Made by a program: the position numbers and the translations under genes. Below the pieces are notes generated by a model. The model had not been told where the DNA came from and did not search any database. It saw only the letters and a program-made list of their open reading frames with translations. Shown one piece after another: positions 1 to 44,240 of a stretch of DNA of 44,240 nt. The stretch lies in IMG/VR virus record IMGVR_UViG_3300044560_000016. One strand, 5' to 3'. Every line of letters begins with the position of its first letter. The stretch's first letter is position 1. The stretch comes from a virus.

Positions 1-127
1 CTGGTTTTTTCTTATATGCCATTCAACATAAGTAATTTCCTGATTACAATTTGGTGTCCATCTAAAATCTTGATTAACACGTAGCATTGCAACATTGAAA
101 GTTAAGAAATCTAATTGATTTGAACTT
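1..127. repeat. Terminal direct repeat, left copy (identical to 44114-44240); circular-assembly overlap
   Basis: ctggttttttcttatatgcc...atctaattgatttgaactt read identically at both ends. Confidence 0.95.
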
Positions 128-9683: not shown

Positions 9684-10823
9684 ATGGCATCTATTAAGAA
9701 ACGTGGTAAGACCTGGTATGTTAGATTTTCTAAGAGAGTTCAAGAATGGGACCCTGAAACCCAATCTATGAAATCAGTCCTAAAACAAAAATCAAAAGGC
9801 GGTTTTAAAACCAAGGCTGAAGCACAACAGTACGGAATTAAAATGGAAGCCGCTTCTATTGATGGTGTAGATGTAGTTAAGAACCCTGTGTTCGCTGACT
9901 ATTTTGAACACTGGTATCTTACTTTTAAATTCCCGATTATCAGAAAATCAACGCAAAAGAGATATATTACTAATCATCATTATCTTGAAAAATATTTTGG
10001 ATCAACAAAAATAAAAGATATTTCAAGAGCTAAATATCAAAGCTTCTTAAATTGGCTTGGTAAAAACCATGCTCCTGCTACAGTTCGTAAAACCAATATT
10101 ATGGTTAAAGCTTGTGCAGGAAATGCAATAGAGGATGGTTTAATCGTTAAGAATTTTACCAATCGCACAACCATCACAGGAAACCAAGACAATGTCAGAG
10201 CCATAGAATACCTTAATGAGGGAGAAATGAATAAGCTGGTACAATTATGCCTAACTGGTTTAACTCCTCGTTATACTAGCAAATATTTAGTTCTAGCAGG
10301 ATTATTTACAGGCGCACGACTTGGAGAACTAACCGCTTTAAAATGGACTGATATTGATTTTAAGAATAAAATTATTGATATTAATAAAACTTGGAATCCT
10401 AATTTAAAAATACTAGGACCAACTAAAACCGAAAGTTCAGTTCGAAAGATTAAAGTTAATTCTTTCTTATTAGATAAATTGAAGCAATTAAAAATTAATA
10501 ATTCTGAATTTGTTTTTGCTATTCCTAGAACTGGACTGCCACCTTCTAGTTCTGCTGTAAATCAATTCTTAAGAAAAGCCATTAAGGAAATTGGGCTTAA
10601 CAAACCTGATTTTCACTTCCATAGTTTAAGGCATACTCACGTTTCATATTTAATTTCTCAAGGAATTGATATAGCTGCTATCAGTAAACGCTTAGGACAT
10701 GCTAATATAGCAATCACTTTATCAATCTATGCTCACTTACTTGATGAATATAAGGATCAACAAGATGCCAAAATTATTAATTCACTCAATCAAGTTTGTG
10801 CAACATTTGTGCAACACGGTTAA
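9684..10823 (+). CDS. int: Tyrosine-recombinase integrase
   Basis: ARLGEL, HSLRHTH and LGHANIAITLSIYAHL catalytic motifs. Confidence 0.95.
   Translation: MASIKKRGKTWYVRFSKRVQEWDPETQSMKSVLKQKSKGGFKTKAEAQQYGIKMEAASIDGVDVVKNPVFADYFEHWYLTFKFPIIRKSTQKRYITNHHYLEKYFGSTKIKDISRAKYQSFLNWLGKNHAPATVRKTNIMVKACAGNAIEDGLIVKNFTNRTTITGNQDNVRAIEYLNEGEMNKLVQLCLTGLTPRYTSKYLVLAGLFTGARLGELTALKWTDIDFKNKIIDINKTWNPNLKILGPTKTESSVRKIKVNSFLLDKLKQLKINNSEFVFAIPRTGLPPSSSAVNQFLRKAIKEIGLNKPDFHFHSLRHTHVSYLISQGIDIAAISKRLGHANIAITLSIYAHLLDEYKDQQDAKIINSLNQVCATFVQHG
10796..10816. repeat. 21-bp direct repeat ttgtgcaacatttgtgcaaca, copy 1 (inside the int 3' end)
   Basis: Identical string at 11011-11031; each copy is an internal tandem of ttgtgcaaca. 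Confidence 0.9.
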
Positions 10824-10959
10824 AATTTCTATGATTTTCTAAAACATAAAATCCTATAATATCAATGTTTTGAGTATTCTGAAACATCGTAAAAGCTTAT
10901 ATTTTAATTCAACCAAGGCTTTAAAGTCTGGTAAAGTTACTCGTGCCTAATAATAAAAA

Positions 10960-10997
10960 ACCTTGATAGATCAATGATCTTTCAAGGTCTTTTTTTA
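10960..10997. terminator. Strong, probably bidirectional intrinsic terminator downstream of int
   Basis: accttga-t-agatc/gatct-t-tcaaggt stem, A-run before and T-run after. Confidence 0.75.
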
Positions 10998-11010
10998 CCT
11001 TAAATTGCTA

Positions 11011-11031
11011 TTGTGCAACATTTGTGCAACA
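11011..11031. repeat. 21-bp direct repeat, copy 2 (attP region)
   Basis: Identical to 10796-10816. Confidence 0.9.
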
Positions 11032-11064
11032 GATTTTTTTATTTTTTTCTTCCTATAATAAAAC

Positions 11065-11112
11065 AAAAAAAGCCACCCTGGGAATAATTTTCCTAGAGTG
11101 GCTTCTTTTTTT
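11065..11112. terminator. Bidirectional intrinsic terminator after the endolysin gene
   Basis: agccac...gtggct stem extended by ctggga/tcctag, flanked by A- and T-runs. Confidence 0.7.
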
Positions 11113-11152
11113 ATAGATTTAGATTTTAGAAAGGTTGATTTTTTCACTTCCT

Positions 11153-12004
11153 TTATTTGATTTTACCTAATAGCTTATTATATTTGTCTCTTGCAACAAT
11201 GTATCCGTAAGAGCCGCCACTTCTTGGTTGTCTTAACCACAAGCGCTTTGGTCCTTGCAATGTTGCATCGAACTTAATTGTATCGCCTTTCTTTAACTTG
11301 GCAAGAGGTTCAGATTCAATGTGTGGGGATTTATGAATTTCTAAAGATTGGCCTAAAGTGAATGTACCATTCTTTTTAACCCATTCAGATTTTTTACGTT
11401 TAGCTGCAGATTGCTTACTTGAACCTTTAGCAAGTTTCTTCCAACCATCTTTTGTAACATTAACCACGCTGCGGTCCATGTCGCCGCCGGTAAACTGCCA
11501 TGCCGTGTAGGTTGGCCATGGGCTTACACTAAAGTTAGCATTTGGAGTTTTCCAACTTGCCCAATTCATAGAAGCGTACCATGCTACCCATAAACCACAA
11601 TCTTTAGCACAATTGGCAACTTGGTTTAGAGCAGATTGCTGAACGTAAATTAATGGCCACACACCGCTAAGGCGGTGGTATTCATCTACGAATTGACGTA
11701 CGTAATTAGAATTGCCCCAGGAACTATTTTGGTATGACTCCCAGTCAACAGCCGGCACAGCTTCACCTATGTAGTTCTTGGTATTTTTATAAAAGTATTG
11801 TGCTTCGGCTTTTGCATTTCCGCCGCCACAGTAGTGGTAAATTCCTAGCAGTTTTCCTTTTTTCTTAGCTGCTTGATAGTCAGTATCACACTTAGGATTT
11901 ACGTACCCTGTTCCTTGTGTGGCTTTAACCATCGTAATATCGGTTCCTGCTTGAGTAGCAAAGTGACGTGGTGAATCAGAATAAACATCAACCATTTTTA
12001 GCAT
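11153..12004 (-). CDS. Endolysin: GH25 muramidase with a C-terminal SH3b-like cell-wall-binding domain
   Basis: DITMVKATQGTGYVNP...GIYHY GH25 pattern; C-terminal FTLGQSLEIHKSP...GDTIKFD SH3-like region. Confidence 0.85.
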   Translation of the reverse strand: MLKMVDVYSDSPRHFATQAGTDITMVKATQGTGYVNPKCDTDYQAAKKKGKLLGIYHYCGGGNAKAEAQYFYKNTKNYIGEAVPAVDWESYQNSSWGNSNYVRQFVDEYHRLSGVWPLIYVQQSALNQVANCAKDCGLWVAWYASMNWASWKTPNANFSVSPWPTYTAWQFTGGDMDRSVVNVTKDGWKKLAKGSSKQSAAKRKKSEWVKKNGTFTLGQSLEIHKSPHIESEPLAKLKKGDTIKFDATLQGPKRLWLRQPRSGGSYGYIVARDKYNKLLGKIK

Positions 12005-12936: not shown

Positions 12937-13108
12937 ATTTCTCACCTGTTGCTTTTTCATAATATTCGGCTGGTAGAGTACCATTAGCAACACGTTCTGC
13001 TAATTCTTCTTTGCTTGTCCAGCCCCATTTGTAGTACTGTACAGCTCTTTCATATACAGGAGTTGGATCGATAGGCTTAAAGCTAAAATTAAAGTTGAAA
13101 TCAAACAT
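12911..13108 (-). CDS. XkdX-family small phage protein
   Basis: 65 aa with YYKWGWTSKEELAERVANGTLPAEYYEKATG, resembling the XkdX family; position after the tail-fibre genes. Confidence 0.6.
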   Translation of the reverse strand: MFDFNFNFSFKPIDPTPVYERAVQYYKWGWTSKEELAERVANGTLPAEYYEKATGEKYEKDEKKV

Positions 13109-13695
13109 TATTTTTCATCCTCCTTAGTGCCTTCTGCATTTGCAGGTGTTTCTTGCTTCTTACCACTTTCAGTATCAGTTTGATCTCCTCTAATACTATT
13201 GATGGCAGCGCCTAATTCCTTGAAGGCTTGACCGAATTGATCACCCATAGCGTTGATTTGTGCAATTAAAGCAGCAGAAGTTTCATTTGATTGATTAATC
13301 GATACTTGAACGGCATTAAGTTGCTTATCCTTAAGTGCATCATTTTTATCCAATTCATCAACTTTTAGATATAACTGGCTAAGCCCTTCTTTGGACTTGT
13401 CATACCATTTGTTGTTAACCCAATCATAGGCAGGCTTAATTAAACCTGGAGTTGGATCTGTTGGTGGATATGGGTAAATGCCTACTTTATCTTTTTCAAC
13501 TGGTTCACGCTTGCAATCTACCTCATCATCACTGCGATATGCATAAACATAATTACTAAGTAAATCCTTAATAATTTCAGCTTCAGAAGGCTTTAAACGC
13601 AATTCAATATCTTCTGTTTCAGTTGTTTCTTCACTTGCAGCTTCAACGGCTTCGAGTGTTTTCGCCTTTACATCTGCATTAGTTTCTTTAACCAT
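13108..13695 (-). CDS. Hypothetical protein (XkdW-position, coiled coil)
   Basis: ATG at 13695 after GGAGAAAAGAGGA; follows the RT gene. Confidence 0.5.
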   Translation of the reverse strand: MVKETNADVKAKTLEAVEAASEETTETEDIELRLKPSEAEIIKDLLSNYVYAYRSDDEVDCKREPVEKDKVGIYPYPPTDPTPGLIKPAYDWVNNKWYDKSKEGLSQLYLKVDELDKNDALKDKQLNAVQVSINQSNETSAALIAQINAMGDQFGQAFKELGAAINSIRGDQTDTESGKKQETPANAEGTKEDEK

Positions 13696-13730
13696 GTTTT
13701 TCCTCTTTTCTCCAAACAAAAAACAGAGCA

Positions 13731-14873
13731 CTAAGAGTGTTCTGCAAATAATTCATTATATAAAGCTCTCATATTGTTTTTAGTTCGATAAGATAGCAAC
13801 TTTTCATAGCTGCCATACCAGGATTTAAATGATGCTTTAGCATCCTCTAAACTCATTCTGCCATCATCAACCAGCCCTCGATATTTCTTCAGCTTCCTTC
13901 TCTCACGAGTCACAGCTTGAGGATTTATCCGCTTAACTAAGTGACCAGTGGAAGTCAATTTATATCTCAGCTTTAAGTAGGTAAACGGCTGATTAAGTTT
14001 CATAATCCTGGTTTTCTTTTCGTTAATAAAAATTCCAAGTTTATTAGCAATTTTGGTTATCTCATTAAGCATTTCATGTAGAAAGTTTTTATCATTACTA
14101 ATAATGTAAGAATCATCCATATATCTGCCATAAAACCGAATCGATCTTATTATTTTGCAATAGTTATCGATTTCGGTAGGAAAGAATATGCTGCAGATTT
14201 GAGATACTTGATCACCAATCGCCAATGATTTTTCCATAAACTTTTCGCCAGTAAGATATTTAGGATTTAATTTAGATTGTTTATCTCCATCAAACTTCAT
14301 ATCTAGGCATTTAGAGTAAAGTTCATCATTTAAATAGGACACATCAATTTTAAAATTCTCTAGTACTTTATCAAATAACCATAAAATTTCTTCATCCTTT
14401 ATATATTTCTTAATCTTATCTCTAAGCTTTTGATGCTGAATATTATCGTAATACTTAGAGAAATCAATTAAAAGAATATATCCTTCATTGCCATGTTTTC
14501 GATAAAATTCATGCAAATGCTGTTCAAATCTTCTTCTAGTAAAAGAAATACCCTTTCCAGGTAGTGATGCACCATTATCATGAATCAGGTATTGCCTCAA
14601 CGTTGGTGTTAAGCATTCATCGCATAGGCTTCTTCTTACAACTCGATCAGAAAATGGATTGCTACGGATATTTCGCTGCTTTCCTCTTTCATTAACTATG
14701 AAACTAGAGCCTTTTCTAGCGTAATAGGTGTGGCTCTCAAGCTCGTTACTAGTTGCTACTAGCTTAGCCAGATAATCCATTTCGTACATTTGAACCTGCG
14801 GCTTCCATGAGCTGCCTCTCTTACTTTCCAAATAAGCTCTATATAATTTGTTTAAATCACTAATATTTTTCAT
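13731..14873 (-). CDS. DGR-type reverse transcriptase
   Basis: FSDRVVRRSL, LLIDFSKYYDNI, the DGR-diagnostic IGDQVSQ, and the YMDD catalytic box; no maturase or endonuclease domains. Confidence 0.9.
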   Translation of the reverse strand: MKNISDLNKLYRAYLESKRGSSWKPQVQMYEMDYLAKLVATSNELESHTYYARKGSSFIVNERGKQRNIRSNPFSDRVVRRSLCDECLTPTLRQYLIHDNGASLPGKGISFTRRRFEQHLHEFYRKHGNEGYILLIDFSKYYDNIQHQKLRDKIKKYIKDEEILWLFDKVLENFKIDVSYLNDELYSKCLDMKFDGDKQSKLNPKYLTGEKFMEKSLAIGDQVSQICSIFFPTEIDNYCKIIRSIRFYGRYMDDSYIISNDKNFLHEMLNEITKIANKLGIFINEKKTRIMKLNQPFTYLKLRYKLTSTGHLVKRINPQAVTRERRKLKKYRGLVDDGRMSLEDAKASFKSWYGSYEKLLSYRTKNNMRALYNELFAEHS

Positions 14874-15021
14874 ACTAACTAAAAATCAGGTGGCTAATAG
14901 TGATAACAATCGTAACTGATCACGTCCACCATCACTTTTACTACCTTTCTGATAGAAGGACAGTTTCTCCTTCTTCTTCATCGTTTTTCTGATATTAATC
15001 ATTTATTTTGGTGAAGGGAAT
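14874..15021 (-). ncRNA. DGR spacer (Sp-like) RNA segment between TR and RT
   Basis: 148 nt non-coding; hairpins gaagga-N7-tccttc (14955-14973) and nested gtgg/ccac plus gtgat/atcac stems. Confidence 0.5.
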
Positions 15022-15109
15022 CCCGAACGCCATTCCAGGTATTGGATGCGCCATTCCAGTTATCATCGCCATTGTTGCTCGCATTCGCAAACTCAGCCGA
15101 AGAATGGAT
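15022..15109 (-). repeat. DGR template repeat (TR)
   Basis: 88-bp match to 15685-15772 with 9 mismatches, all at TR coding-strand adenines; starts 9 nt after the avd stop. Confidence 0.9.
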
Positions 15110-15118
15110 TAACAGAAA

Positions 15119-15556
15119 CTACCCTATTTTCTTCTTTAATCTAATATCTGACTTTCGCCACGATTTGATCAAATGAATTTCTTTTTCAATTAGTTCAATG
15201 GATGTTCTATATTTATTCAGATTCAAGCCCGTTATAACGTCTACTATCGATTGCAATTCTTGCTTCAAAACAATGCAATTTGCTATTGCTTTGTCTTGAT
15301 AGAGCCTTCTTTGGTCGTACTCTAACACAGTGGTTACGTACATTGCATTAGCTCTATGAATATCTCCCACAATATCACCACACAGATTTATAATTCTTTC
15401 AAACTTTAAATCTAAGAATTGAGCTTCACCTAAATCTGCAATTCTGGTAATTCCAAAATCTAGCATCAGGTGCTTAACTAGCTCTTTTTGAATAATTTGC
15501 ATATTGTGAAAAACTTCGAATCGTGATTTCTTTCTCTTTCCTTTTGGAACTGACAT
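15119..15556 (-). CDS. avd: Accessory variability determinant (Avd)-position protein
   Basis: 145-aa helical protein with a basic N-terminus (KGKRKKSR) located exactly between VR and TR. The assignment is positional; no motif was recognised by eye. Confidence 0.6.
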   Translation of the reverse strand: MSVPKGKRKKSRFEVFHNMQIIQKELVKHLMLDFGITRIADLGEAQFLDLKFERIINLCGDIVGDIHRANAMYVTTVLEYDQRRLYQDKAIANCIVLKQELQSIVDVITGLNLNKYRTSIELIEKEIHLIKSWRKSDIRLKKKIG

Positions 15557-15626
15557 AAATATAAAACCTTTCTACATTAATTCTTAAGGTGGATGAATTT
15601 TATAATACATTGGAGGCACACTTTCT

Positions 15627-15665
15627 ATCGGCTTGCACCCCTAAAGGGGATGCGGATCAGCCGAT
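15627..15665 (-). promoter_or_regulatory. Two-tier hairpin immediately 3' of the VR and stop codon (DGR homing hairpin/cruciform candidate; may also terminate)
   Basis: atcggct/agccgat outer stem, gcacccc/gggg(a)tgc inner stem, 4-nt loop. Confidence 0.6.
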
Positions 15666-16528
15666 TAGCCGATCAAGAAGAAAGCCCGAACGCCAAACCA
15701 GGTATTGGATGCGCCATCCCAGGTATCATCGCCATAGGAGCTCGCATACGCAAACCCAGCCGAAGAATGGATATCTCTAAGCCAGATAGTACCACGATTG
15801 AAATTACGTTCTGTATCATTCATTCTCATAATAGGCAATTGACTATTATCATCACCAACGTTGCACCATGCGTTGTTCTTGTTGTTACCGTTTAGAGTAG
15901 TACCATAGATCATTACTTCTGTAGGAATCATAACCTTCATATCGCGCCATTCACCTTGGTCAGGTGCACCGGAATCATCAACATGAGTAGATACAATGCC
16001 TCTCCATTGCATTAAATGAGAACCAAAATCGCTCTCTAATTTTTGCTGAATTTGAGGCAAATAAATCTTATAAAGTTTAGTATTAGCAAAGCCTCCTTCG
16101 GTGGTGTCGGTGTCATTCATGTAATGAGTGTCCTTACCATTGGGGGCTAAAGTTTGAGTAGGTGTTTTAGACCAATCTTGAGGCATAAGAACTAGATGAT
16201 TACCTAAAGAAATGTTGTCTCCGTGGCCTTTCTTATAGTTGATACCGGCAATGACATAATTAGATCCATTAATGCTGAAGTAATCACCGATAAACATATC
16301 CTTAAAGCTACCATTTTGGATATTTGCGATATGGGTAGCCGTCAAATTACCTAAATTTTGTCCTCTAAAGATGCTGTTATGAGTTGCAGCACCGTCAGGG
16401 ATTAATGAGTAATACAAATCTCTTAATCTTGTTTTGGTTTCACCATTTCCGGTAAAAGTTAAAGCAAAATTTTCATTAGTATCTGGTTTCCAATTTTCAC
16501 TTAAGTCTTGGATTCTTGTAGCTGCCAT
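15665..16528 (-). CDS. DGR target protein: putative distal tail-fibre / receptor-binding protein with a C-terminal variable region (C-type-lectin-like fold inferred)
   Basis: 287-aa ORF directly after the tail-fibre gene; VR at the extreme C-terminus ending in the WFGVRAF motif. Confidence 0.8.
   Translation of the reverse strand: MAATRIQDLSENWKPDTNENFALTFTGNGETKTRLRDLYYSLIPDGAATHNSIFRGQNLGNLTATHIANIQNGSFKDMFIGDYFSINGSNYVIAGINYKKGHGDNISLGNHLVLMPQDWSKTPTQTLAPNGKDTHYMNDTDTTEGGFANTKLYKIYLPQIQQKLESDFGSHLMQWRGIVSTHVDDSGAPDQGEWRDMKVMIPTEVMIYGTTLNGNNKNNAWCNVGDDNSQLPIMRMNDTERNFNRGTIWLRDIHSSAGFAYASSYGDDTWDGASNTWFGVRAFFLIG
15685..15772 (-). repeat. DGR variable repeat (VR) at the C-terminus of the target gene
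   Basis: Encodes IHSSAGFAYASSYGDDTWDGASNTWFGVR, ending 6 codons before the stop. Confidence 0.9.
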
Positions 16529-16549
16529 AATTTAAACTCCTTTTTTGTT

Positions 16550-17740
16550 TTATTTAATTTTTGCTTCTAAAGCTGTCAATCTGCTATTTAAAGATTGAAT
16601 GCTGTTCTTTAAATCTCTAATAGTAGGATTATTCTCAATAGTTGATTGAGTTAAGCCGAGTCTGGATGCCAATTGTCTAATAGCTTGCTCAAACACATCA
16701 GATAAAATCCTAATGGTATCTCCAACCTTTTTAGCATCTGCAGCTTGATTAGATTTATTAAGTTCATTATCAATAAGCACATATTGAGCGTTTGCAATTA
16801 ATTCTCTACCATCATGAATGACTAAAGCATTACCATCATGTGCAACTAAATTAATAGATCTTCTATTAGCAATAATGCCGTTTTCTAATCTAGCTGTTTC
16901 TTCTCTAGCAGTAGCAATATTGTTCTGATTAGTATCAATGCGCTTATTTGAATTTGTGATCCTATCAGCATTAGATTTAGCTAAATTATTAACGTTTCTA
17001 ACAGTAGCCTTAGTTTCAAATGTTTCTCTTAAATTGCGTTCAATGCCATGAATCTCATTTTCAATAGCTTTAAGATTATCTCCCACAACTTTAGCTGGAG
17101 CAGCCTTAGTGCTACTAGTAAGAAAATGATCATATTCAACAATAGGCTTGTTAGCGAATAATTGCTTATTATCATGTGTTACAAGCTGATTACCATCAGC
17201 ATCTTTAAGAGCTACAGTGATATAGCCGTTGCTTAAAGCATTAATGATTTCATCAATATCATGTTCATGTTCTCTGCGCGATTCTAGCCCATCGGGATTG
17301 ATGTTAATCGTTACATGATCAGTATCACCAACCTGAACATAAACCATGATTCTAAATTCAAAACTAGGATCACTTAAAGTCAATCTTTCAGGCTCTTCAG
17401 CCAAAGAAAAAGCGATAGGATAACTTGCATTAATACCATCTTGTCGCCCTTCAATTTGAATACTTTGTAAATCGATATCTCTAGTTAATCCAGTACTTTC
17501 TTGAGTAAAAGACAATTCAATTCCTAGAATTCCTTGATCTGCTAATGATTTATCATCTTTAGCAAAAATAGGGATATGACCAATTGGATTAACGATTGAT
17601 CCTTGATTCATTACATCATTTTCATTAGTTTTGCTTTCACTATAAGAAGCAGATGTAATTTCAAAGGTTCTTCCTCGTACTACTCCTTGAATAATTTGTA
17701 ATCCTTTGGGTAGTAACTTTGTTCTACTGTATTTACTCAT
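16550..17740 (-). CDS. Tail fibre protein with an internal duplication and a C-terminal coiled coil
   Basis: 396 aa; repeated ...DGNxLVxHDxxxLxAN...AAxAKxVGD... segments; follows the baseplate genes. Confidence 0.6.
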   Translation of the reverse strand: MSKYSRTKLLPKGLQIIQGVVRGRTFEITSASYSESKTNENDVMNQGSIVNPIGHIPIFAKDDKSLADQGILGIELSFTQESTGLTRDIDLQSIQIEGRQDGINASYPIAFSLAEEPERLTLSDPSFEFRIMVYVQVGDTDHVTININPDGLESRREHEHDIDEIINALSNGYITVALKDADGNQLVTHDNKQLFANKPIVEYDHFLTSSTKAAPAKVVGDNLKAIENEIHGIERNLRETFETKATVRNVNNLAKSNADRITNSNKRIDTNQNNIATAREETARLENGIIANRRSINLVAHDGNALVIHDGRELIANAQYVLIDNELNKSNQAADAKKVGDTIRILSDVFEQAIRQLASRLGLTQSTIENNPTIRDLKNSIQSLNSRLTALEAKIK

Positions 17741-18411
17741 AAATTCCTCCTTTCTGCTTCAATCGTTTGAACAGTTCTTCCAGTAACCGGTGTAGCAACA
17801 TAAGCGGACGGTTCAATATTTGTCTTACCCCAAATACCACACTGATATAATCGCTTGACAATTGTTGAATCATCTAGCCATTCTGCTTTAGCTACAGTTT
17901 GAGCAACCACGGTACAAGCAGACCCAATGTAAGCGTGAGCTGCTTCAGTTTTAGCCCACAAACGGTAGGTATAGCCCATGTTTGCCGGTAACCATGTATT
18001 TAATTCAAAAATTACCAGTTTTTGTTGTGATTTAGTTAACTCACCAGTCCAAGAAACAACATTCAATACACGCCGTGAATAATCAACACTAACTTCAGCC
18101 GGAATTTTCAAAGATTCAAAAATTTGTTTTAACCGTCTAATGGTAAGTGGTTGTGGTGTCAATGTTCTAGTAAGAACTCTTTGCCTTCTTAGCTCTAAGC
18201 TATCCCCATGTTCAGGCACGATACCGTATTGATCCTCAAATACTAAGATGCCTTTTTCATCAGCTTTAGAAACAAACTGATTAAATAAAGTTCGATTGAG
18301 ATCATCATCAAATTTACTCAATCCTTTGCCTTGAGCTTTTAGCAACTCCTCCATTTCATACACGCCGTTATAGTAATCAGGCATGTAATTGAGAAGTTCA
18401 TCGGTTTTCAT
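17737..18411 (-). CDS. XkdU / P2 gpI-like baseplate-tail protein (DUF2313-like)
   Basis: N-terminal LLNYMPDYYNGVYEMEELLKAQG pattern; position after baseplate J. Confidence 0.55.
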   Translation of the reverse strand: MKTDELLNYMPDYYNGVYEMEELLKAQGKGLSKFDDDLNRTLFNQFVSKADEKGILVFEDQYGIVPEHGDSLELRRQRVLTRTLTPQPLTIRRLKQIFESLKIPAEVSVDYSRRVLNVVSWTGELTKSQQKLVIFELNTWLPANMGYTYRLWAKTEAAHAYIGSACTVVAQTVAKAEWLDDSTIVKRLYQCGIWGKTNIEPSAYVATPVTGRTVQTIEAERRNL

Positions 18412-22066: not shown

Positions 22067-25000
22067 CTAACTTAATGATTTATCAGCTTGTTCCATAATT
22101 TTTTCTTCAAGCTTATCAAGTAATGCATCAGCATCTTCTTCAGGATTACCAGAACTGTTAATAGTGATAGCACCAGATTGAATAGTTACAGATTGATTAT
22201 TATTAGTGTTAGCAGTAGAAGAGTTTGAAGATAAAACTGAAGCAGGTGTAATAGCATTTGATCCTGTTCCTAAATTGGATCCATCAATACTTTTTTCATT
22301 GAAGTTCTGATTACCAGTGATTGAACTTAAAATACCAACATTAGCCGTTTTTCCATTTAAGCCAGTGATTGCACTGACAAGGTCATAAATACTATCCTTA
22401 GCTCTATTAAAGCCATCAGCTAATAAATCTCCTGTATTAAATTGATCCATTTCAGGAGCACCAATAACTGGATGCATTCCACTAGCGGCATCAACTACAC
22501 CTTGTGCCATATTAGCAGAAGCATCAGCTGCGGCACCGGCATCTTTGTTAAGACCAATAATTAAACCTTGATCAACCCATCTACCATATTGCCTAAACAA
22601 TCTTGATGGTGAACCAATATGAAGCAAGCCTTTAGCGGCACTTACTACACTACTTGCAACTTTACTTACAGCACTAACAGCGGCACCAATCATTGAGGTA
22701 ATACCGTTAATCAAACCTTGGATTAAGTCACGACCTACACCAACTAAGGCACCAGCAAAACCTCTAGCAGCACTAACAGCGGCTTGAATACCGCTTGAAA
22801 CTGCAGATACAACTCTACTCATTGCACTGGTAATAGCAGACACCATCATAGAGCCAGCCATAATGAACATTGAGACCATAGTCATTACAGCGGTACCAAC
22901 TGCTACAATTGCGGCTGCTGTCATCATTGCTGCAGCAGCTACAGCGGCTAATCCTGCTGCTAACATCATAGAAGCAGAAGCTAACAGCATTAAACCAACT
23001 GCGGCTACCATTGCCATTGGCCCAACTAAAATTAATGCCATTGATAACATGAGCATTCCAACTGCGGCAATCATTGCCATAGGTGCAATCATTACCATGG
23101 CTACTGCAAGCAGCATCATACCTACTGCGGCAATTAATGTCATAGGTGCAATCATCACCATAGCCACAGCCATTATCATTAGACCTGCTCCAGCTACTAA
23201 AGACATTGCCGCAATTAAAGTTAAGGCAACGCCAAATAGTAATGCACCTACAGCGGCTATCATCAATCCTGCAGCTAAAACAATTAAGCCAGCACCTAAT
23301 ACAACTACACCTACTGCGGCAACTAAGGCACCAACACCGAACACTGCAATTGCTCCAGCTAAAGCAAGTAATCCAACAGCGGCACTAAGACCATATTGAG
23401 AAATAATTGGCAACTGAGTTGCTAACATTGTAATTCCAGCAGATGCCACAAAAATAGCAGCACCAATAATTAAAAGTGCTGCGGCAAACATCAAGAATCC
23501 TGCTGAAGCCCCTATCATTGCAGGGCCTAATAATCTAACTACAACAGCTAATGCAGCAATAGCGGCTACCATTCCAAAGAAAGTAGCAATTGTAGCACCG
23601 CCACCACTAGCTAATTGTGTTGCAGCATCTGCTAAGAGCTTAAATCCAGCGGCAGCTAATACAACAGCACCACCAACCATTAGTAAAGCGGCACCTAATT
23701 TAAGATAGGCACCAGCGCTTTGAGCAATGCCACCAGCTTGAGGAACTTCAGGAGTAGCCATCTTTGGTGCTCTTATACCTTTGATACTACTGAAAGCATC
23801 GTGGATTCCTTTTAGCATTTGAAATCCTTTGCGTGCCGCTTTCAAAATTACAAAAGCATAGGCCATTTTAGTTAATGCACTAGCAATTCCTTCAATAGTT
23901 CCAGGACTTAAGTTATTGAGCTGTTGTAATCCTTTAACGATGGCCATTATTGCAATTCCTTTAAGTCCACCTTTTAGAACAATGAATGCTCTAGCAAGTG
24001 ACATCAAAGAATTTGGATCAATTTGTCCTATGGCTTGTGCTATACCGGAAATAGCTTTAGCTACACTGCTAAGAGCTCCACCAGTTAAACTTCCTAGTTG
24101 TTTAAAAAAGCTTCCACCACCATTACCTTCATTAAGAGTATTAGTTACATCCAGAACTGCATCAGCAATATCTTTAAGCATATTTATTAAAGAATCTCCA
24201 ACGCCGGAACTTGAAAGACCTTCAAAGAAATCTGATAAACCTAACTGTAATCGTTCAAATATAGGTTGAATATAATTAATAGCATTAACTAAGCCATCAC
24301 CCATTGCATCCCAATTAAAATTAGATATTTTATCAGTTAATCCAGAAACAACATTAATTCCGATTTTACTCAGTTTTTGATATTGATCTATTACTCCATT
24401 GGCTAATGTTTCTTTCAAGCCATCCATGGCTTGCCCAACAGTTTTGTACTGAGTAGCCATTTTAGAGAAGTTAGCATTGGTACCAGTTTTAGCAACAGCG
24501 TTTAAGAAATCCTGAGTTTTAACCTTACCGTCCTGAATATCTTTAATCAGTCCTGTTAAGTTAGTATGCATGGTTTTAGCAACAGCAGACATTCCGGCCG
24601 GTGTTTGTTCTAGCATTAGTTTAAAATCTTGCCATTGAACTTTAGGCTTAGCTGCCATTTGTGTGGCTTGTTCACTTAAAGTTTTCATGGCTTGTTGAGG
24701 ATCATTAGCTGCAGAAGCTAATCCACCAAAACCTTTAACCAATTGAGCAGTATTCTTAGTGCCAACTGCGGCTAATTGAGCATAGGTACTAGACATATCA
24801 GAAGCACTGTAAATTGTTTGTTGTGCAAACTTCTGCATATCTGATTTAGCTCTAGCAATTTGAGTATTAGATGCACCAATTTGACGCATATTTCCTTCAA
24901 ATGTTTGCCATGAAGTTGATGCTTCATTAAGTTCACCTAGCATTGAACTAATACCAGATCTGGCTAAGTCCATGCCTTTACTAATTAAGTTACCAACTAC

Positions 25001-25186
25001 AACACCACCAGTCATAGATTTGAACATACTATTAGATGATTTGCTTGCACCTTGAAATGCATCACCACTTAAAGCACTTTTTAATTTACTAAAACCACTC
25101 TGCCCTTTTGAAAGCCCTGCGGCTAACTTGCTTAATGGAGCACTAAAGGCATCATTAATCTTAATTGTTGCGCTTATTTCAGCCAT
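22067..25186 (-). CDS. Tail tape measure protein with a long hydrophobic periodic core
   Basis: 1039 aa, directly after the frameshifted chaperone pair; Ala/Met/Leu/Gly-rich central region. Confidence 0.85.
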   Translation of the reverse strand: MAEISATIKINDAFSAPLSKLAAGLSKGQSGFSKLKSALSGDAFQGASKSSNSMFKSMTGGVVVGNLISKGMDLARSGISSMLGELNEASTSWQTFEGNMRQIGASNTQIARAKSDMQKFAQQTIYSASDMSSTYAQLAAVGTKNTAQLVKGFGGLASAANDPQQAMKTLSEQATQMAAKPKVQWQDFKLMLEQTPAGMSAVAKTMHTNLTGLIKDIQDGKVKTQDFLNAVAKTGTNANFSKMATQYKTVGQAMDGLKETLANGVIDQYQKLSKIGINVVSGLTDKISNFNWDAMGDGLVNAINYIQPIFERLQLGLSDFFEGLSSSGVGDSLINMLKDIADAVLDVTNTLNEGNGGGSFFKQLGSLTGGALSSVAKAISGIAQAIGQIDPNSLMSLARAFIVLKGGLKGIAIMAIVKGLQQLNNLSPGTIEGIASALTKMAYAFVILKAARKGFQMLKGIHDAFSSIKGIRAPKMATPEVPQAGGIAQSAGAYLKLGAALLMVGGAVVLAAAGFKLLADAATQLASGGGATIATFFGMVAAIAALAVVVRLLGPAMIGASAGFLMFAAALLIIGAAIFVASAGITMLATQLPIISQYGLSAAVGLLALAGAIAVFGVGALVAAVGVVVLGAGLIVLAAGLMIAAVGALLFGVALTLIAAMSLVAGAGLMIMAVAMVMIAPMTLIAAVGMMLLAVAMVMIAPMAMIAAVGMLMLSMALILVGPMAMVAAVGLMLLASASMMLAAGLAAVAAAAMMTAAAIVAVGTAVMTMVSMFIMAGSMMVSAITSAMSRVVSAVSSGIQAAVSAARGFAGALVGVGRDLIQGLINGITSMIGAAVSAVSKVASSVVSAAKGLLHIGSPSRLFRQYGRWVDQGLIIGLNKDAGAAADASANMAQGVVDAASGMHPVIGAPEMDQFNTGDLLADGFNRAKDSIYDLVSAITGLNGKTANVGILSSITGNQNFNEKSIDGSNLGTGSNAITPASVLSSNSSTANTNNNQSVTIQSGAITINSSGNPEEDADALLDKLEEKIMEQADKSLS
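22935..23400. repeat. Degenerate 63-bp (21-codon) periodicity inside the tape measure gene
   Basis: The actgcggc/acagcggc motif recurs at 22998, 23061, 23124, 23250 and 23376 (multiples of 63). Protein units include AVAMVMIAPMTLIAAVGMMLL and AVAMVMIAPMAMIAAVGMLML. Confidence 0.75.
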
Positions 25187-36551: not shown

Positions 36552-36563
36552 TAAAAATATTAA

Positions 36564-36635
36564 AACCTAGGATGGACTTGCACCATCATTGCTGACTTTC
36601 GTAAGTCATGTTTTTTCTAATTAAACTACTAGGCC
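36564..36635 (-). ncRNA. tRNA-shaped element with an aberrant anticodon loop (6 or 8 nt) and a non-canonical T-loop
   Basis: 72 nt: acceptor ggcctag/ctaggtt (two G-U pairs), D stem gttt/aaac, stem tgact/agtca with loop tacgaa, T arm gatgg-tgcaagt-ccatc. Confidence 0.4.
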
Positions 36636-36658
36636 CTTAATTCCGTATTAAGAATTAA

Positions 36659-44035: not shown

Positions 44036-44240
44036 TTATTCTCCTTCATACCAACCTTCAGCATTTAAATGAGCTGCTTTTTTAGGACTTAATCTTTTTA
44101 GAAAACCTCTTACCTGGTTTTTTCTTATATGCCATTCAACATAAGTAATTTCCTGATTACAATTTGGTGTCCATCTAAAATCTTGATTAACACGTAGCAT
44201 TGCAACATTGAAAGTTAAGAAATCTAATTGATTTGAACTT
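44036..44240 (-). CDS. C-terminal part of the junction-spanning 103-aa hypothetical protein
   Basis: Same frame as 1..234 once the overlap is collapsed; TAA stop at 44036-44038. Confidence 0.5.
   Translation of the reverse strand, partial: SSNQLDFLTFNVAMLRVNQDFRWTPNCNQEITYVEWHIRKNQVRGFLKRLSPKKAAHLNAEGWYEGE
44114..44240. repeat. Terminal direct repeat, right copy (identical to 1-127)
   Basis: Same 127-nt string as 1-127. Confidence 0.95.

Follow-up and report, generated by a model that had tools for sequence, protein, structure and literature searches.

A structurally intact diversity-generating retroelement very probably rewrites the tail receptor-binding tip of a temperate Lactobacillus crispatus myophage

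The stretch of viral DNA analysed here, IMG/VR virus record IMGVR_UViG_3300044560_000016 (44,240 nucleotides; hereafter the window), carries on its minus strand a group of genes and repeats with the layout of a diversity-generating retroelement (DGR). Read along that strand, the gene for a 287-aa target protein with a variable repeat (VR) at its C-terminus is followed by 108 nt of intergenic sequence, a 145-aa open reading frame (ORF) resembling the accessory variability determinant (Avd), a template repeat (TR), a 145-nt spacer and the gene for a 380-aa reverse transcriptase (RT). All ORFs of this cassette are intact. The target gene comes directly after those for baseplate J, a Mu gp48-like protein and a 396-aa fibre protein.

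A repeat search of the window found a single long direct repeat in this region (15019-15109 and 15682-15772; spacing 663, 89% identity). Base-by-base tabulation of the core of the pair, TR 15022-15109 versus VR 15685-15772, reproduced the constant offset of 663 and the 79 of 88 identities given in a preliminary description of this DNA, together with its nine mismatch positions (15033, 15034, 15055, 15060, 15073, 15075, 15076, 15085 and 15093). Each of the nine is a T on the plus strand, that is, an A on the coding (minus) strand, so that 9 of the 22 adenines of the TR are changed versus 0 of its 66 other bases. The chance that all nine mismatches fall on adenines is 8.7 × 10−7 (hypergeometric), and the substitutions from TR to VR reach all three other bases. 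In the reading frame of the target the TR reads IHSSAEFANASNNGDDNWNGASNTWNGVR and the VR IHSSAGFAYASSYGDDTWDGASNTWFGVR, as earlier given; six of the seven AAY codons of the TR are altered in the VR (to Y, S, Y, T, D and F), and one GAG has become GGG. Randomisation of the TR adenines could yield up to 1.8 × 10^13 DNA or 2.8 × 10^12 protein variants, with no stop codon reachable. The search for further TR-like copies that had been proposed was run within the window: an adenine-degenerate TR pattern, for which zero matches are expected by chance, matched these two copies alone and revealed no third TR-like copy or second VR in the window.

Ordinary segmental duplication, with differences arising later by random drift or tail-fibre selection and no reverse transcription involved, would also leave two copies, and the direct repeat itself is all that speaks for it. 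The base-specific tabulation rules it out: all nine mismatches sit on one of the four bases and were changed to all three others, and drift explains neither the adjacent RT and Avd genes nor the same pattern in the related loci described below. We regard a duplication of this kind as extremely improbable.

Seventeen loci with related RTs (38-76% identity; from metagenome-assembled genomes (MAGs) and IMG/VR) share the order VR, ~680 nt, TR, ~130 nt, RT, and have 7-22 TR/VR mismatches each; these are adenine-only in 16 loci, and the seventeenth has one extra C mismatch. Among GTDB representative genomes no close RT relative was found, only MAG loci at 42-48% identity. In the four intact cassettes of the phage family itself (the window, L004, L038 and L042), 49 of 51 mismatches are at adenines (A>G 25, A>T 14, A>C 10). 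A comparison of VRs among related phages, likewise proposed at the outset, showed variation concentrated at the codons that hold TR adenines. Across 339 target homologues at 70-94% identity, column entropy is high only at residues 261, 263-265, 267, 269, 271, 275, 276 and 278, exactly those whose codons hold TR adenines. Relatives at 92-94% identity have about half of their differences within the 29 VR residues, and 12-15 members of one 90% cluster show 7-9 different residues at TR-adenine codons with neighbouring positions invariant. These sequence comparisons offer strong population-level evidence that the DGR of this family works in nature.

Recombination or mosaicism of tail-fibre modules, rather than a DGR, might be held responsible for the hypervariable C-terminus of the target among relatives; Lactobacillus phage tail-fibre genes are mosaic, and megablast returned no match between the window's fibre region and the closest sequenced phages. 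Recombination, however, would swap blocks and not single codons, whereas the variable columns are isolated single codons at TR adenines flanked by invariant ones. Moreover, the VRs left in three relatives that have lost the cassette differ from the window TR at adenines in 12 of 12, 12 of 14 and 15 of 16 positions. Mosaicism as the source of this variation is thus very unlikely.

The RT matches RVT_1 at 1.3 × 10−15 and PHROG 1423 at 2.6 × 10−66, and has the DGR-type motifs [I/L/V]GxxxSQ and YxDD (IGDQVSQ at residues 219-225, YMDD at 251-254). Among phage records, Acutalibacter phage Fontainebleau (42%) and Roseburia phage Shimadzu (36%) encode its closest counterparts. By sequence, its best match in the PDB is 8ub7, a 328-aa entry deposited as 'Reverse transcriptase' that we take to be the Bordetella DGR RT. 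In the Bordetella enzyme, I181, G182 and Q187, which belong to the same motif as IGDQVSQ, contact the template and the incoming nucleotide (bioRxiv 10.1101/2023.10.23.563531).

The 145-aa protein matches PHROG 3206, 'Avd protein of DGR', at E = 3.9 × 10−8, and has no match in Pfam, NCBIfam or, by sequence, the PDB. Its AF2 model consists of four helices (pLDDT 82), for which the PDB entry with the top TM-score and probability is 4dwl, the Bordetella DGR Avd (TMt 0.80, root mean square deviation 3.1 Å, probability 0.96). Foldseek gave that match a weak E-value of 1.6, of the kind commonly seen with helical bundles. On its PHROG match, modelled fold and synteny, the ORF is assigned as an Avd-like protein with a predicted four-helix bundle.

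The RT, the Avd-like gene, the position of the VR at the C-terminus of a fibre gene, a hairpin beyond the VR, the 17 related loci and the hypervariability of the homologues all support the preliminary reading of the two repeats as the TR and VR of a DGR. The pair almost certainly belongs to a genuine, complete and canonical DGR that is structurally intact.

Table 1. Features of the DGR cassette, in coordinates of the window
Feature	Position	Strand	Remarks
DGR target gene	15665-16528	-	287 aa; distal tail-fibre / receptor-binding protein, probable DUF6273-like (C-type-lectin-like) domain, VR at C-terminus
Variable repeat (VR)	15685-15772	-	88 nt, encodes residues 253-281 of the 287-aa target ORF; 9 mismatches to TR, all at TR adenines
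IMH-like 3' end of VR	15682-15694	-	GC-rich GGCGTTCGGG then CTT; TR counterpart has ATT (15019-15021)
Nested stem-loop (candidate recognition element)	15621-15684	-	just downstream of VR; outer stem CTTTCT..ATCGGC pairs with GCCGAT-AGAAAG
Inner GC-rich hairpin	15635-15653	-	GCATCCCC-TTTA-GGGGTGC
Accessory variability determinant (Avd-like)	15119-15556	-	145 aa, between VR and TR
Bracketing duplex, upstream strand	15114-15125	-	AGGGUAGUUUCU; 12 nt just upstream of TR; overlaps avd stop codon
Template repeat (TR)	15019-15109	-	non-coding, in avd-RT intergenic region; 22 adenines within 88-nt core 15022-15109
TR-RT spacer (Sp-like RNA)	14874-15018	-	145 nt
Stem closing just after TR	15011-15016 with 14976-14982	-	within spacer
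Purine run	14969-14979	-	GAAGAAGAAGG; candidate primer strand, just 5' of bracketing duplex
Bracketing duplex, downstream strand	14957-14968	-	AGAAACUGUCCU; in spacer
Covarying 3' spacer hairpin	14900-14923	-	9 of 13 predicted pairs with compensatory changes
DGR reverse transcriptase	13731-14873	-	380 aa; 145 nt downstream of TR

The AF2 model of the target has a pLDDT of 88.8. Among its BFVD matches are gut-phage models named 'Receptor Binding Protein' and 'DUF6273 domain-containing protein' (E = 9 × 10−7 to 2 × 10−24), and 30 of 78 aligned target relatives match Pfam DUF6273 (PF19789); some relatives carry BppU_N, tail-collar or T7 tail-fibre N-terminal domains. The best PDB Foldseek match of the model is weak and not significant (9qa6, E = 0.012, TM 0.36); 9qa6 is a peptidase that begins with a DUF6273 domain at its N-terminus (PMC12402451). 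Searching PDB sequences with the target profile returned noise only (EsxB, E = 0.15), and this result was set aside. In gut Bacillota phages, published work recognises DUF6273 as a C-type-lectin-like domain targeted by DGRs and places the VR at the C-terminal end of that domain (PMC10743442, PMC11792537). From the BFVD matches, the 30 matching relatives, this literature and the position of the gene, we infer that the target is a DUF6273-like receptor-binding tip.

Two plus-strand ORFs of 63 and 100 aa (15589-15895) lie antisense to the VR and the hairpin; since the target gene that they overlap on the minus strand is well supported, both are most likely spurious.

The preliminary description had noted differences at both bases flanking the repeat and proposed that the repeat may measure 90-92 bp, which was only partly right. 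At 15021 the coding strand has A in the TR and C in the VR, and this difference is not due to random mutagenesis: the base after GGCGTTCGGG is A in all 4 TRs (...CGGG-ATT) and C in all 11 VRs (...CGGG-CTT) of the phage family. Of the 14 more distant RT loci listed, 13 show the same contrast and one has T in its VR. Because the contrast is fixed in this way, the difference at 15021 is a fixed TR/VR boundary of information transfer, of the type known as initiation of mutagenic homing (IMH*/IMH), and not a mutagenised adenine. On the other side the proposed extension fails: next to 15110, positions 15111 and 15112 are mismatches at bases other than adenine, so the repeat goes no further there.

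Just beyond the VR lies the nested stem-loop of Table 1, a candidate target-recognition hairpin or cruciform. A GC-rich hairpin of 7-10 bp stands at the same place in 14 of 14 distant relatives, and two family members, L004 and L025, have a wholly different inner stem (AGCGACCA-TTTA-TGGTCGCT) with loop and position unchanged, a complete stem replacement that is compensatory on its two sides. In Bordetella phage BPP-1, targeting requires a hairpin/cruciform of this kind together with the IMH, and the two suffice for it; the stem counts there by its structure and not by its sequence (PMC3240598). The structure was also considered as a mere terminator of the target gene, and this was rejected: in the window the hairpin lacks a T-run, and the promoter/terminator scan did not call it.

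The RNA elements around the TR are visible only across relatives; single-sequence folding of TR plus spacer was not better than that of shuffled sequences (z = −1.1), and an Rfam scan found no family covering the DGR RNA, with tRNAs as its sole matches. A 12-bp duplex that brackets the TR can form in each of 15 loci examined, and 11 of its 12 pairs are changed on both sides across 12 distinct relatives among these loci. The register of the segments was set manually, a choice that favours pairing; in this register 96.5% of cells are paired versus 42-59% in slid controls, and 0 of 500 shuffles reach the observed score. RNAalifold, run on the whole spacer, recovered the 3' hairpin and missed the long-range duplex, because the upstream strand was absent from that alignment. 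The bracketing duplex resembles, and may correspond to, the avd:Sp 'cPRT Stop' duplex, which was seen by cryo-electron microscopy of the Bordetella ribonucleoprotein and predicted in 207 DGRs with an average of 13 bp (bioRxiv 10.1101/2023.10.23.563531). By the same analogy, the purine run GAAGAAGAAGG would supply the priming nucleotide.

These elements can be arranged into a probable course of events. A transcript holding the 3' end of avd, the TR and the spacer would fold back on itself, pairing the nucleotides immediately upstream of the TR with the spacer in the duplex backed by covariation. A complex of Avd and RT would then reverse-transcribe the TR, misincorporating at adenines, as the mechanism of the DGR family and the mismatch pattern imply. 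The cDNA, guided by the IMH-like end and the hairpin if these act as in BPP-1, would enter the tail-fibre gene and replace the VR at its 3' end. The predicted outcome is that ~15 codons (7 AAY) are randomised on the surface of the DUF6273 / C-type-lectin-like receptor-binding domain, with up to ~3 × 10^12 protein variants; such diversification presumably follows changes in the host surface receptor.

The first and last 127 nt of the window (1-127 and 44114-44240) form an exact direct repeat. The assembly is therefore circular and holds a complete phage genome of 44,113 bp, which suggests that the phage still excises or replicates. A Logan contig of 44,143 bp (SRR16388521) would, from the lengths, fit the same circle with a shorter overlap of ~30 nt. 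The Avd, target and integrase of the window are annotated in L. crispatus MAGs, and relatives occur in L. crispatus, L. amylovorus and L. gallinarum. In DNA sequence, the structural module shares 86-88% identity with that of L. helveticus phages P185, CR28, T280 and phiAQ113. The DGR region (13000-17800) has no megablast match to any phage record, which left no near-identical published phage for a comparison of VRs, and none of the Lactobacillus phages in the phage collection searched encodes the RT. The best explanation of the data as a whole, which we hold with high confidence, is a canonical and intact DGR in a complete temperate L. crispatus myophage, rewriting the receptor-binding tip of its tail.

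Several observations weigh against this explanation. The target of the window itself is without any Pfam match at E ≤ 0.01, and Mtd and TvpA were not retrieved when its model was compared with the PDB by Foldseek. The loop of the hairpin is TTTA and not the GRNA consensus reported for BPP-1-like elements (PMC3240598). Six of the 11 sampled target-gene lineages (L025, L028, L031, L033, L036 and L040) have neither RT nor TR; since about half of the sampled relatives have thus lost avd-TR-RT by deletion, selection to keep the cassette is weak or episodic. The exact target protein, and thus the same VR, was read on 20 contigs from several samples, chromosomes of up to 2.3 Mb included; the exact RT and the exact Avd were each found on 13 contigs, and no VR variants linked to an identical RT, a proxy for read pile-ups, were found on the contigs carrying the exact RT.

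These last counts bear on whether the element still operates. The preliminary description spoke of active retrohoming; the DGR mechanism stands, and the activity of this copy is inferred, one VR being present on all contigs with the exact RT. We think it probable that this copy is functional at present, because all its parts are intact, non-adenine mismatches are absent and no stop codon can be reached. The cassette might instead be a recently silenced fossil, its VR diversified earlier and retrohoming since lost, for example by a regulatory defect or a missing host factor. The single VR on every contig with this RT, and the frequent loss of the cassette in the phage family, fit such a course. 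However, RT, Avd, TR, IMH, hairpin and RNA duplex are all intact, and the window has 0 non-adenine TR/VR mismatches, whereas cassette-less relatives have 0-7 non-adenine differences from the closest surviving TR. Identical VRs across samples would also be produced by repeated sequencing of one lysogenic clone, and are expected in that case because DGR events are rare per generation. We rate recent silencing as the less likely course and prefer to see the cassette as still working.

The losses in relatives can be traced to deletions within the equivalent of window ~13761-15585, which remove the 3' part of avd, the TR and the RT through at least three different junctions, some of them nested and some at short microhomologies. 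In L031 and L033 position 15299 is joined to ~13761-13766 at an imperfect 8-nt microhomology; L028 has this deletion plus a second one (15585 to 15326), and that of L025 runs from 15474 to 13910. Truncated Avd ORFs of 79-133 aa are frequent in the public database. The metagenomic contigs of two relatives, L035 and L042, break off inside avd or shortly past the TR, by a few bases, which suggests that the TR/VR repeat breaks short-read assemblies and that intact cassettes may be under-counted.

Cassette-less relatives keep orphan VRs with an intact IMH-like end and hairpin. Because their differences from the window TR lie almost wholly at adenines, in the counts given above, these VRs appear to have been written from a nearly identical TR before the cassette was lost, or else to be still written in trans. 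That a co-resident or co-infecting DGR-positive phage of the family still diversifies them in trans seems rather improbable. If it were so, one RT-Avd-TR cassette would be a mutator shared by the tail fibres of phages in L. crispatus, L. amylovorus and L. gallinarum, and genomes with cassette deletions would be 'cheaters' and not dead ends.

Other features of the phage genome were noted in passing. Between the convergent genes for integrase (9684-10823, +) and lysin (11153-12004, -) lies a 330-nt non-coding stretch with terminator-like inverted repeats (10824-11152), the likely attP region; related prophages differ in the host genes beside which they are inserted, these being rpmB/asp23 in L. 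crispatus and msrA in L. amylovorus. A cluster of phage tRNAs (36562-37042, -) includes a tRNA-Trp(CCA) confirmed by Rfam and a second tRNA (36562-36636), also confirmed by Rfam, in which ARAGORN read an anticodon of four bases, 'acga', without assigning an amino acid; ARAGORN alone called an 85-nt 'tRNA-Val(GAC)' in the cluster. Inside the tape-measure gene (22067-25186), the segment 22001-24000 reaches a G+C content of 0.41 versus ~0.35 elsewhere, and its AT skew changes sign.

The prototype DGR is that of Bordetella phage BPP-1 (mtd-avd-TR-brt). It and the window cassette both have the order target(VR)-avd-TR-RT, adenine-specific mutagenesis acting on AAY codons, and a tail-fibre receptor-binding gene with the VR at its 3' end. 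Both have a GC-rich VR end followed by a hairpin, a duplex between the 3' end of avd and the spacer that brackets the TR, an Avd four-helix bundle (modelled in the window) and an RT with the IGxxxSQ motif. They differ in the length of the TR (~88-91 nt here versus 134 in BPP-1), in the hairpin, which in the window has the TTTA loop in place of GRNA and is nested inside a second stem, and in the target, 287 aa and DUF6273-like, in place of Mtd, which Foldseek did not retrieve. The RT has 380 aa here versus 328, with sequence similarity detectable only over the N-terminal half, and the host of the window phage is a Gram-positive lactobacillus.

Also close to the window cassette are the DGRs with DUF6273 targets of gut Bacillota phages, namely Fontainebleau, Shimadzu, the Faecalibacterium phages Lelie, Roos and Pioen, and phages nd4 and nd12. 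They supply the closest RTs among phage records (25-42% identity) and have the VR at the C-terminus of a DUF6273 / C-lec-like domain (PMC10743442, PMC11792537); Fontainebleau also shares the target-avd-RT order and has homologous target and Avd proteins. However, protein identities to the window are low (28-42%), and the window phage is a phiAQ113 / P185-like Lactobacillus myophage with another host genus and another backbone. It has a single target, without a second one of tentaclin or Hoc-like type.

The cultured L. helveticus dairy phages phiAQ113, P185, CR28 and T280 share this backbone, with structural modules at the ~86-88% DNA identity already given, but have no RT and no TR. CR28 (OQ627802; L045) and T280 (OQ627808; L044) carry a target homologue at 65-68% identity, followed by the hairpin, and in both the VR-like C-terminus is eroded. 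Of avd, T280 retains no more than the first 27 codons, annotated as 'CAD protein', and it has lost the conserved 3' end of the VR; CR28 keeps the first avd codons, and its VR-like segment has 13-17 non-adenine differences from any family TR. Both look like DGR fossils, whereas the cassette of the window is intact.

The mechanism of DGRs is well known and nothing in the window departs from the known model, so that the finding is mechanistically confirmatory and not surprising. What is new is the host group, no published description of a DGR in a Lactobacillus phage having been found in the literature searched. Little is understood of the prophages of L. crispatus, a key species in both the human vagina and the gut of poultry. 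With a working DGR at its fibre tip, this temperate phage would have a built-in means of changing its receptor specificity, which bears on strain dynamics, probiotic stability and studies of phage resistance. Set beside the dairy phages, the family forms a natural series, from intact cassettes through nested deletions to eroded fossils, that can be used for studying how DGRs are lost.

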